A program made the translations under genes and the position numbers. 64,000 nt of DNA from an uncultured Alphaproteobacteria bacterium (GTDB lineage: Bacteria; Pseudomonadota; Alphaproteobacteria; 43-37; CAWALT01), in the NCBI GenBank assembly GCA_963782975.1, contig CAWALT010000003.1, positions 333,805 to 397,804 of the forward strand, given 5' to 3'. Below the pieces are notes generated by a model. It made no database searches. It was not told the origin of the DNA and saw only the letters and a list, made by a program, of their open reading frames with translations. Below are positions 14,651 to 15,507 of this stretch, one piece after another. Position 1 is the first letter of the stretch. Each line of letters opens with the position of its first letter.

Positions 14651-14959
14651 TTACTCCGCGTCGCCGCCGTTGCCTCCATTGCCGCCAGCGCCCAAGGCAG
14701 TATCGCCGCCGTTGCCTCCATTGCCGCCGTTACCATATTGGCTGTTGCCGCCATGTCCGCCATCTTGACCATTTTTATGGTTGTGGCCATGCTTGCCATG
14801 CTCTCCATCTTCGCCGTCGGGAGAGGTTGGTGTTCCGTTTTTCCCATCTTTTGCTCGAGAAAGAGGAACCTCCAATTCTTCTACATCAGCTGCCTGAGCA
14901 AAAGCAGCAGAGGAAAAGATAAGACCCAAAAGGGCTGTATAAATAAAATTTTTCTTCAT
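14651..14959 (-). CDS. Small secreted Gly/Asn/His-rich repeat protein.
   Basis: Signal peptide MKKNFIYTALLGLIFSSAAFAQA. The remainder is GGNGGNGG and HGKHGHNHKNG low-complexity repeats. Confidence 0.6.
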   Translation of the reverse strand: MKKNFIYTALLGLIFSSAAFAQAADVEELEVPLSRAKDGKNGTPTSPDGEDGEHGKHGHNHKNGQDGGHGGNSQYGNGGNGGNGGDTALGAGGNGGNGGDAE

Positions 14960-14977
14960 TGCATACTCCTCGATAAT

Positions 14978-15250
14978 TTATGTTCTTGAACCATCGCGTC
15001 CGGGGCTACCATTTCCAGCTGGGCCGTTACCACCGGCTCCCCCTTTGCCTCCGCCTCCAGGGCCGTTACCACCCTTGCCGCCATTACCACCTCTACCTGA
15101 ACCGCTATTGCCGCCGTTGCCTCCATTGCCACCTTTGCCTGAAGAGCTGTCACCGCCCTTGCCCCCATTGCCGCCATTTCCGGCTTCAACGATAGGTGAG
15201 GCAGCGAATATACACAACGCGGTAAGTAAGAAAAAATATTTTATTTTCAT
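14978..15250 (-). CDS. Small secreted Gly/Asn-rich repeat protein (GGNGG/GGKGG).
   Basis: Signal peptide MKIKYFFLLTALCIFAASPIVEA followed by tandem GNGGNGGKGG repeats. Confidence 0.6.
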   Translation of the reverse strand: MKIKYFFLLTALCIFAASPIVEAGNGGNGGKGGDSSSGKGGNGGNGGNSGSGRGGNGGKGGNGPGGGGKGGAGGNGPAGNGSPGRDGSRT

Positions 15251-15291
15251 CTATTTTTCCTAGATTTTATAGCATTTAAAGCAAAGCTGCT

Positions 15292-15507
15292 CTACTTGCT
15301 ATCTCCGCCGTTGCCACCATTTCCTCCACTTAGGCCGCCGTTGCCGCCTTGACCGCCGTTGCCTGAGCCGCTATTTCCACCATGTCCGCCGTGTCCACCG
15401 CTTCCTGCCGAGTGTCCACCATGACCGCCATGTCCGCCATTCGAGGCAAAAGAAGAAATTGGGAAGGAGAGAAAAAATATCGTCGTTAAAGCTAGTAGTT
15501 TTTTCAT
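15292..15507 (-). CDS. Small secreted Gly/His/Asn-rich repeat protein (GGHGGHGG).
   Basis: Signal peptide MKKLLALTTIFFLSFPISSFAS, then GGHGGHGGHSAGSGGHGGHGGNSG... Confidence 0.6.
   Translation of the reverse strand: MKKLLALTTIFFLSFPISSFASNGGHGGHGGHSAGSGGHGGHGGNSGSGNGGQGGNGGLSGGNGGNGGDSK

Follow-up and report, generated by a model that had tools for sequence, protein, structure and literature searches.

An unannotated three-gene cassette, present in bacteria labelled as different phyla, that probably encodes a rare glycine-rich protein fold

Bundles of glycine-rich polyproline-II (PPII) helices are a poorly sampled protein architecture. Surveys which extend to June 2026 list as known or proposed cases the springtail antifreeze proteins (AFPs), the N-terminal domain of Obg, acetophenone carboxylase and ALK/LTK, and also name phage gp38, the Bxb1 tail proteins, the PE_PGRS proteins and plant glycine-rich proteins (10.1101/2023.11.25.568672, PMC13243192, PMC9436101). 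Sec-exported bacterial mini-proteins and three-gene cassettes are absent from these surveys. Small stand-alone bundles have been reported only from springtails (PMC10235112), and the bacterial examples are large PE_PGRS domains, experimentally intractable. Here we describe a cassette of three small genes (A, B and C) whose products, as judged from structural models, probably have this fold. It is found in a stretch of 64,000 nt (the window) of contig CAWALT010000003.1, from assembly GCA_963782975.1 of an uncultured Alphaproteobacteria bacterium. Such Gly-rich bundles of PPII or polyglycine-II (PGII) helices are a known kind of fold; what is new is the family, together with its operon organisation and taxonomic setting. 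A literature search on the motif and on Gly-rich secreted proteins of Parachlamydiaceae has given nothing relevant.

The springtail AFPs are represented by sfAFP of the snow flea (structures 2PNE and 3BOG) and by a protein of Granisotoma rainieri (7JJV). Like A, B and C, they consist of a signal peptide and a small (6–10 kDa) stand-alone Gly-rich domain, with G-x-x triplets, helices of about three triplets (predicted in our case) and short turns; the string DGGHGGNGG is found in both families. They differ in several features. The new family is bacterial and forms an operon of three paralogues. A and B have two Gly per triplet, unlike the springtail proteins, and the three proteins of the window do not have the disulfides of the latter. 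The autocorrelation of sfAFP is strong at every multiple of 3, while the new family loses the register at the turns and has a period of 14. Homology between both families is not established by the sequence comparisons given below.

PGRS domains, modelled as PGII sandwiches (PMC9436101, PMC13243192), resemble the new family in being bacterial, exported to the envelope and tolerant to insertions or deletions of repeat units. They are made of GGA or GGN triplets with inward Gly, arranged in a two-layer sandwich; in our proteins the triplets are GGN, GGH and GGK, with invariant Gly pairs. PE_PGRS proteins begin with a PE domain and a GRPLI linker, whereas A, B and C have Sec signal peptides and no match to the Pfam PE model. 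PGRS domains are large, with 7–54 helices, and have a hydrophobic edge for which a place in the mycomembrane has been proposed; A, B and C are hydrophilic mini-proteins with 4–7 predicted helices, and form a trio. PE_PGRS proteins are not known outside mycobacteria and are exported by type VII secretion.

Other systems are more distant. The tip protein gp38 of phage S16, Bxb1, Obg, acetophenone carboxylase and ALK/LTK have side-by-side Gly-rich PPII helices, similar to those predicted in A, B and C, but embedded in larger proteins, while our proteins are stand-alone and secreted. In gp38, the bundle is a rigid platform for variable recognition loops. Plant glycine-rich proteins (PF07172) have a signal peptide and (GGX)n repeats, as in the new family; they are eukaryotic and do not have the 14-residue unit or the conserved termini. 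The best score of a relative of C with this model (P0066) is 27.2 bits, for a threshold of 30, and the proteins of the window do not match it. Curli and Fap operons likewise combine several genes for small paralogous repeat proteins which are exported by Sec and have a high content of Gly, Asn or Gln. The likeness is limited to the operon logic: they are cross-beta rather than PPII, there is no sequence relationship, and they need an outer-membrane channel and chaperones, none of which is conserved beside the cassette.

The three genes are located on the minus strand: A at 15292–15507 (71 aa), B at 14978–15250 (90 aa) and C at 14651–14959 (102 aa), separated by 41 nt (A-B) and 18 nt (B-C). The original prediction, a reading of the window without database searches, had proposed three consecutive genes of these lengths with a signal peptide each; we have found the open reading frames (ORFs) at exactly the coordinates it gave, and their N-termini read as Sec-type signal peptides with a K-rich n-region, a hydrophobic core and a predicted signal peptidase I site. 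Cleavage is predicted between SFA and S in A (signal peptide 1–21), VEA and G in B (1–23) and AFA and Q in C (1–21). Shine-Dalgarno-like sequences can be read on the same strand upstream of each ATG: GAGGAG 12 nt from A (15520–15525), AGGA 7 nt from B (15258–15261) and GAGGAG 6 nt from C (14966–14971).

All three proteins consist of the signal peptide and a Gly-rich body, and they rank within the top four ORFs of at least 30 aa in the window for Gly content (25–40% Gly overall). G[NHKQ]GG motifs are confined to them, except for isolated single matches elsewhere. Searches with Pfam, NCBIfam and PADLOC models give zero matches, in agreement with the earlier view that these proteins do not belong to any described family. 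A role in anti-phage defence was set aside, as PADLOC gave no match.

Mature A has about 50 aa, with 55% Gly (54–55% in mature A and B). It contains about four segments of GGx triplets, with S-x-G-S-type turns between them, five His, and a GGDSK C-terminus. Mature B is basic and devoid of His in the window. Its repeat unit has 14 residues, GGxGGxGGx followed by a turn of 4–5 residues rich in S, G and N; about five units are present, as compared with six in most relatives. Mature C is acidic: a SRAKDG motif is followed by a charged G-x-y run, GQDGGHGGN, and GGN segments up to the final GGNGGNGGDAE. The description of these proteins as made almost entirely of GGx repeats fits A and B, but not C, in which the N-terminal half of the mature part is a charged G-x-y sequence (SRAKDG...DGEDGEHG...). 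The third position of the triplets is occupied by Asn, His, Lys, Asp, Ser or Gln.

The Gly autocorrelation has peaks at lags 3 (values of 0.47–0.54) and 14. B is the most regular of the three proteins: the 42-bp tandem period found by Tandem Repeats Finder corresponds to its 14-residue unit. As a unit of 14 residues cannot be divided into whole triplets, B cannot form a continuous collagen-type helix, and the sequence layout suggests helix-turn-helix hairpins. The three triplets per unit agree with the helix length published for springtail AFPs, about three triplets (PMC10235112), and for PGRS sandwiches, three to four (PMC9436101). A, B and C are paralogous, with pairwise scores 5–8 standard deviations above triplet-preserving shuffles. 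Two features had been overlooked in the original prediction: the genes form three distinct groups of orthologues in a conserved operon, and their products have a repeat architecture based on triplets and 14-residue units.

In order to define the family we have used protein and DNA searches. In what follows L-numbers refer to genomic loci, P-numbers to proteins homologous to C, and taxonomic labels are those of the depositors. A homology search with C finds 76 homologues, mostly of about 90 aa. Their common layout is a signal peptide, SRAKDG-x-x-G, a charged G-x-y run, GQDGGHGGNGG, a turn with an aromatic residue and a C-terminal GNGGNGGDAD. An exhaustive search of 1.84 billion representatives with the C profile gives 451 proteins at E ≤ 0.001, 72 of them at E ≤ 1e-10. 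Small full-length members have 78–125 aa; long proteins with multiple Gly-rich stretches fit only the G-x-y part of the profile. The searches yielded 84 small C-type proteins in total. With A and B as queries, HMMER gives only 4–5 matches. In species-representative genomes, a degenerate DNA pattern for the C-terminus of C and its stop codon finds 30 loci, nearly all of them genuine C genes.

The order of the genes is constant: A is followed by B and then by C in 11 cases among the pattern loci and the window, with A-type proteins of 73–77 aa and B-type proteins of 104–109 aa. The order is kept in the window and in L002, L004, L006, L009, L012, L016, L017, L019, L024, L026, L031 and L035. In six of the eight aligned cassettes, A and B overlap by 4 bp (ATGA); the window is one of those without overlap. 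Many carriers of the trio are metagenome-assembled genomes (MAGs) labelled as Parachlamydiaceae or Chlamydiota; a named strain, Parachlamydiaceae HS-T3, is also a carrier of the family. Others are labelled as Gammaproteobacteria (L004) or Midichloriaceae (L017). L004 shares its C subtype with a Legionellales MAG (L013). L019 is labelled as Gammaproteobacteria and may be mis-binned, since its C is of the chlamydial type. Among high-GC metagenome contigs, L031 (GC 0.63) has the full trio and L033 (GC 0.60) only B and C. A divergent trio is found in a cultured free-living species, Fluviispira multicolorata (L035:4717-5673, WFLN01000004.1). A resolvase gene is located some 0.9 kb away from it and is followed closely by a Tn3-family transposase gene. 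This neighbourhood suggests that this copy of the cassette is carried on a mobile element.

C is found alone in about nine loci, including MAGs labelled as Verrucomicrobia. Some of these loci may derive from full trios, because a decayed B-type remnant of 50 aa is present upstream of the otherwise lone C of a Parachlamydiaceae MAG (L038:4826-4978). Chimeric genes are also found in L010 (4453-4755) and L022 (6961-7110), with an A-type N-terminus and a C-type C-terminus, or with pieces of A, B and C; they indicate recombination between paralogues in some Parachlamydiales genomes. No conserved neighbour gene of the cassette was detected by an all-against-all BLAST of the flanking ORFs or by checks of locus context, and the scan of viral contigs with the DNA pattern gave no match. 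Some relatives of C of a KHGKNG subtype (P0066, P0073, P0075) have an additional non-Gly C-terminal domain of about 85 aa (...DEWEYKILKDTCRQ...WSYP...), and a Pfam search of this domain gives no match. The DNA pattern also caught by chance an unrelated secreted protein of 261 aa in Streptomyces cinereospinus (L027:6624-7409), with a His/Lys/Asp-rich N-terminal part and long GGDGG(A/P)GG repeats, which may be another uncharacterised Gly-rich repeat protein.

The genes are clearly maintained by selection. In codon alignments, the mean proportion of synonymous differences (pS) is about 0.7, near saturation, while that of nonsynonymous differences (pN) is 0.13 for A (with a pS of 0.71), 0.20 for B and 0.28 for C. 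In the closest pair, L006 and L016, the ratio of nonsynonymous to synonymous rates (dN/dS) is 0.04–0.06 in all three genes. Protein lengths are near-constant across the labelled phyla in the aligned cassettes. Insertions and deletions between orthologues mostly correspond to whole triplets (3 or 6 aa) or to about one repeat unit (11–14 aa): 3 aa in A, 6 aa in the C of L016, 14 aa in the B of the window and about 11 aa in its C. In an alignment of ten B sequences, 33 columns are invariant and 29 of them are Gly. A, B and C are real coding genes in the frame given above, under strong purifying selection.

At the DNA level, the GC content of third codon positions (GC3) is 0.43 in the cassette and 0.42 in the background of the window, so the raised GC content of the cassette only reflects positions 1 and 2 of the Gly codons. 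A recent horizontal acquisition into this genome was rejected on the basis of the same comparison. GGG codons are avoided (3% in the cassette, 24% in the background). The region had been described as a GC-rich micro-repeat. It is indeed repetitive, with periods of 9, 18 and 42 bp according to Tandem Repeats Finder, but not a clean micro-repeat: the copies are 60–88% identical and exact tandem repeats never exceed 8 bp. The sole long exact repeat has 24 nt, 42 bp from its copy in C, and marks a duplicated 42-bp (14-aa) unit at 14663–14732 (minus strand). This is the extra unit of the lineage: the C of the window has one unit more than most relatives, and the extra unit is also found in P0001, P0002 and P0004. 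The mirror ORFs mentioned in the original prediction do exist (14570–14989, 14980–15195 and 15045–15263 on the plus strand, together with further ORFs in alternative frames of the minus strand); they simply result from the runs of GGN codons.

Evidence on the fold was obtained from AlphaFold2 models, based on an alignment of 23 sequences for C and of four sequences for B. The best C model has a mean confidence score (pLDDT) of 73.7, with values of 71–83 over residues 31–100. According to DSSP it contains no helices or strands outside the signal-peptide helix, and this is how DSSP reads a PPII bundle. A Foldseek comparison of this model with the PDB gives only four matches, all of them springtail AFPs with a PPII bundle: 3bog_A, 7jjv (chains B and A) and 2pne. 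The best one, 3bog_A, has E = 4e-3, TM-scores of 0.53 and 0.65, and a root mean square deviation (rmsd) of 3.7 Å over 70 columns with 37% identity. As a control, the B model, which is unfolded and even more Gly-rich, has no Foldseek matches at E ≤ 10; the AFP matches are therefore not produced by composition alone.

At the level of sequence, we have used the snow-flea AFP given in PMC10006524, in which eight residues lack mass-spectrometry coverage; these residues were filled in for the test with single sequences and masked for the test with profiles. Positions 39–89 of the hidden Markov model (HMM) of the C family align collinearly with residues 4–53 of snow-flea AFP, including DGGHGGNGG. The AFP outscores 996–999 of 1000 decoys which keep both composition and G-x-x register (z = 3.0–5.1). 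The composition-corrected HMMER score of the C profile with this protein is 0 bits. Sequence searches of the PDB give weak collagen matches or none, and sfAFP is absent from the listing; a search of a viral fold library gives no significant match. The similarity between the C profile and snow-flea AFP appears to be positional, beyond low complexity, and is compatible with distant homology or with convergence towards one architecture alike. Taken together, the model-based evidence for a PPII-bundle fold is moderate.

We propose that A, B and C form one operon which codes for Sec-exported mini-proteins, PPII/PGII sandwiches that act together in the cell envelope. We give this explanation a probability of roughly 0.5. 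The data show an operon of three paralogous, Sec-exported mini-proteins under strong constraint, which is kept in bacteria with labels of several phyla. After removal of the signal peptide, each would form short left-handed PPII/PGII helices of about three GGx triplets, joined by turns of 4–5 residues and packed as a flat two-layer sandwich similar to the springtail AFPs. The two Gly of each triplet would face the core and the neighbouring helices, while the third residue (Asn, His, Lys, Asp or Ser) would form polar ladders on the surface. The models suggest that, of the systems compared, the family works most like a miniature, Sec-exported PGII sandwich.

The three proteins, made together, would act jointly in the periplasm or cell envelope, probably by mutual association, a part of the proposal in which we have low confidence; the combined product might be a rigid hydrophilic module with a structural or ligand-binding role. 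Partly complementary charges count in favour of joint action: mature C is acidic throughout, with a net charge of -1 to -8, and most B proteins are basic and have a conserved basic tail; A is approximately neutral and His-rich. A possible compensation between lengths is suggestive: the window has a B of five units and an extra unit in C, L031 has a five-unit B and a long C, and L033 has a B of about three units and a still longer C. In 15 of the 84 C-type proteins, a lipobox-like motif replaces the signal peptidase I site, so that part of the family would sit at an envelope membrane. In these lineages C would be a lipoprotein, and the module would be anchored to the membrane. The C of the window has no Cys, hence no lipobox of the form [LVI][ASTVI][GAS]C.

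Several observations weigh against this proposal. The five AlphaFold2 models of C range in pLDDT from 47.6 to 73.7, and the B model, with a pLDDT of 48, is uninformative. No Foldseek match of the C model reaches E ≤ 0.001, and 2pne, which represents the same protein as 3bog, fits poorly (TM-scores of 0.28–0.33, rmsd of 14 Å). The training set of AlphaFold included the snow-flea AFP structure, and GGx repeats may default to that fold. Single sequences, compared with snow-flea AFP over triplet shuffles, give z values of 2.5 for A, 1.0 for B and 2.5 for C, barely above the control. As for joint action, solitary C genes mean that C can function without A and B, the net charge of B ranges from -2 to +6 and is thus not always basic, and the pattern of short B and long C is confined to one clade. 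A consensus promoter scan upstream of A gives no convincing sigma-70 site. The co-assembly of A, B and C is something which we purely infer.

The alternative which best survives is intrinsic disorder: the mature proteins would be flexible Gly-rich chains, acting as periplasmic hydrophilins, spacers or gel-formers; it is close to the flexible polymers suggested at first, and we consider it unlikely. The extreme Gly content of mature A and B, the low confidence of the B model and of two of the five C models (47.6 and 57.2), and the loss of most of the signal under HMMER composition correction speak in favour of disorder. The conservation of these proteins is harder to explain in this way: from phylum to phylum, Gly and Ser/Asn keep fixed positions in invariant columns, lengths are near-constant, changes in length mostly involve triplets or about one unit, and dN/dS is very low. 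Besides, the best C model is compact and similar to an antifreeze protein. We therefore disfavour flexible polymers with respect to a folded PPII bundle.

Metal binding was also part of the original prediction, which compared these proteins with Hpn-like proteins. A periplasmic store or buffer of Ni, Zn or Cu, based on GGH and HGGH motifs, would be compatible with the bundle fold, but we find it rather improbable. In 12 of 13 sequences, A has 4–7 His among about 53 residues, two of the His columns are kept in 12 and 11 of the 13, and GQDGGHGG is retained in C. The remaining His positions of A, however, exchange with Asn, Ser, Gln or Pro, and the A protein of Midichloriaceae has just two His. 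B lacks His in the window, L017 and L035, and no metal transporter or regulator is conserved among the neighbours of the cassette. Helicobacter Hpn and Hpn-like proteins are also small and have many His, as A does. Hpn is a cytoplasmic protein without signal peptide, with about 47% His, His runs and Cys pairs, and it is not based on Gly triplets. Here signal peptides are present, there are 0–5 His per protein (0–10% of the mature part) and most His positions are not conserved.

A bolder version of our proposal would be that A, B and C co-assemble into a heteromeric PGII/PPII lattice, that the cassette has spread between phyla as a unit, and that it shares its ancestry with the springtail AFPs. 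We regard this combination as improbable. If the lattice did exist, bacterial envelopes would contain a kind of material not recognised so far; as for shared ancestry, gene transfer between bacteria associated with arthropods or protists and an early collembolan would be a possible route.

The matches with springtail AFPs might be taken at face value: the proteins would then be ice-binding, either antifreeze proteins or inhibitors of ice recrystallisation, which guard the extracellular stages of aquatic bacteria. Springtail AFPs are in fact the only structural matches, the profile similarity is collinear and includes DGGHGGNGG, and record titles place the carriers in lakes, bogs and groundwater. 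Nevertheless, we find this function quite improbable. The springtail proteins present a flat ice-binding face with many Ala, Ser, Thr and Val residues (PMC10235112), while the third residues exposed in the new family are Asn, His, Lys and Asp. The family is also present in obligate intracellular lineages, and a link to cold habitats is absent from the data.

Slightly less credible still is the possibility that these are secreted Gly/His-rich toxic, antimicrobial or host-directed peptides, part of a mobile module for competition or virulence. The proteins are small and secreted, and the cassette is self-contained and patchily distributed across phyla; in Fluviispira it adjoins genes for a Tn3-family transposase and a resolvase. 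GGH repeats are also found in shepherins and other antimicrobial peptides of eukaryotes that are rich in Gly and His. But no gene for immunity, processing or dedicated export is conserved nearby, PADLOC and viral-contig scans give no match, and GC3 is fully adjusted to the host genome. Typical antimicrobial peptides are cationic, while C is strongly acidic and A is neutral.

It is very improbable that the proteins form a collagen-like triple helix, whether as an A:B:C heterotrimer or as a C homotrimer. Gly is found every third residue, three chains are co-encoded, and collagen chains as well as the Pfam Collagen model are matched weakly, below threshold. However, the 14-residue unit breaks the register each time, the longest unbroken G-x-y run in C has only about eight triplets, Pro is almost absent and there is no trimerisation domain. 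Relatives score 11–13 bits with Pfam Collagen (PF01391), as compared with a cut-off of 27.2, and the proteins of the window do not match it. An RTX beta-roll (GGxGxDxUx) was also rejected: GGNGGNGGD has Gly at position 8, which is hydrophobic in the RTX nonapeptide, and there is no Pfam match at E ≤ 0.01, the HemolysinCabind model included.

Finally, a slippage-prone contingency locus or an assembly or annotation artefact, which the repetitive DNA, the open frames on both strands, the 24-nt repeat in C and the chimeric genes of L010 and L022 might bring to mind, can practically be dismissed: the genes recur in at least 12 independent assemblies under purifying selection, which rules out an artefact such as a mis-assembled low-complexity region, and this recurrence, together with imperfect repeats, avoided GGG codons and near-constant lengths, strongly argues against contingency driven by slippage.

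Our results define an unannotated three-gene cassette which crosses phyla and probably, as far as models can tell, encodes a rare protein fold. Standard homology tools apply composition corrections which suppress A, B and C, so these genes are either annotated as hypothetical proteins or missed in gene calling. A compact Sec-exported bacterial family would supply structural biologists and protein designers with many natural sequences of the fold, and the carriers include the cultured Fluviispira multicolorata and the strain Parachlamydiaceae HS-T3. Several questions are raised: Which envelope ligand a polar PPII platelet with Asn/His ladders might have, given that many carriers are labelled as host-associated or intracellular lineages; why the cassette is kept as an operon of three paralogues; and whether the springtail antifreeze fold is related or convergent.

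The neighbourhood of the cassette in the window deserves some comments. A weak terminator-like hairpin is found on the minus strand at 14623–14639, 12 nt past the stop codon of C; it is only a consensus match, and the number of such sites in the region is not above that expected from shuffled sequences. The flanks of the cassette are poor in ORFs and unusually long, 1.3 kb at 15508–16803 and 0.7 kb at 13954–14650; they could be decayed genes or regulatory regions. An Rfam scan around the cassette gives no meaningful match.

The window has 43% GC and contains ankyrin-repeat genes, a leucine-rich-repeat gene, a kynU-trpD-trpC operon and housekeeping genes, which is the profile of a host-associated bacterium. 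An ankyrin array on the minus strand (4288–13953) lies directly downstream of the cassette, with genes at 4288–6642, 6904–9012, 9282–9923 (a weak match), 10031–11341 and 12091–13953. Between two of them, a plus-strand ORF of 196 aa (11456–12046) contains an E3-binding domain and the first 46 positions, approximately, of the catalytic domain of 2-oxoacid dehydrogenase acyltransferases; it looks like the remnant of a truncated E2 gene. On the other side of the cassette, kynU directly precedes trpD and trpC on the plus strand (16804–19740), with more ORFs on this strand up to 22294. We take this arrangement to be a tryptophan-salvage-type operon, as in some Chlamydiae. Another eukaryote-like repeat protein, with 560 aa and leucine-rich repeats, is encoded at 22725–24407 (plus strand). 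An ORF of 45 aa (MGGKMEVDETYFGGPRKGKRGQG...) at 47763–47900 (minus strand) presumably resembles a fragment of an IS1595/ISXO2-type transposase, a possible insertion-sequence remnant.

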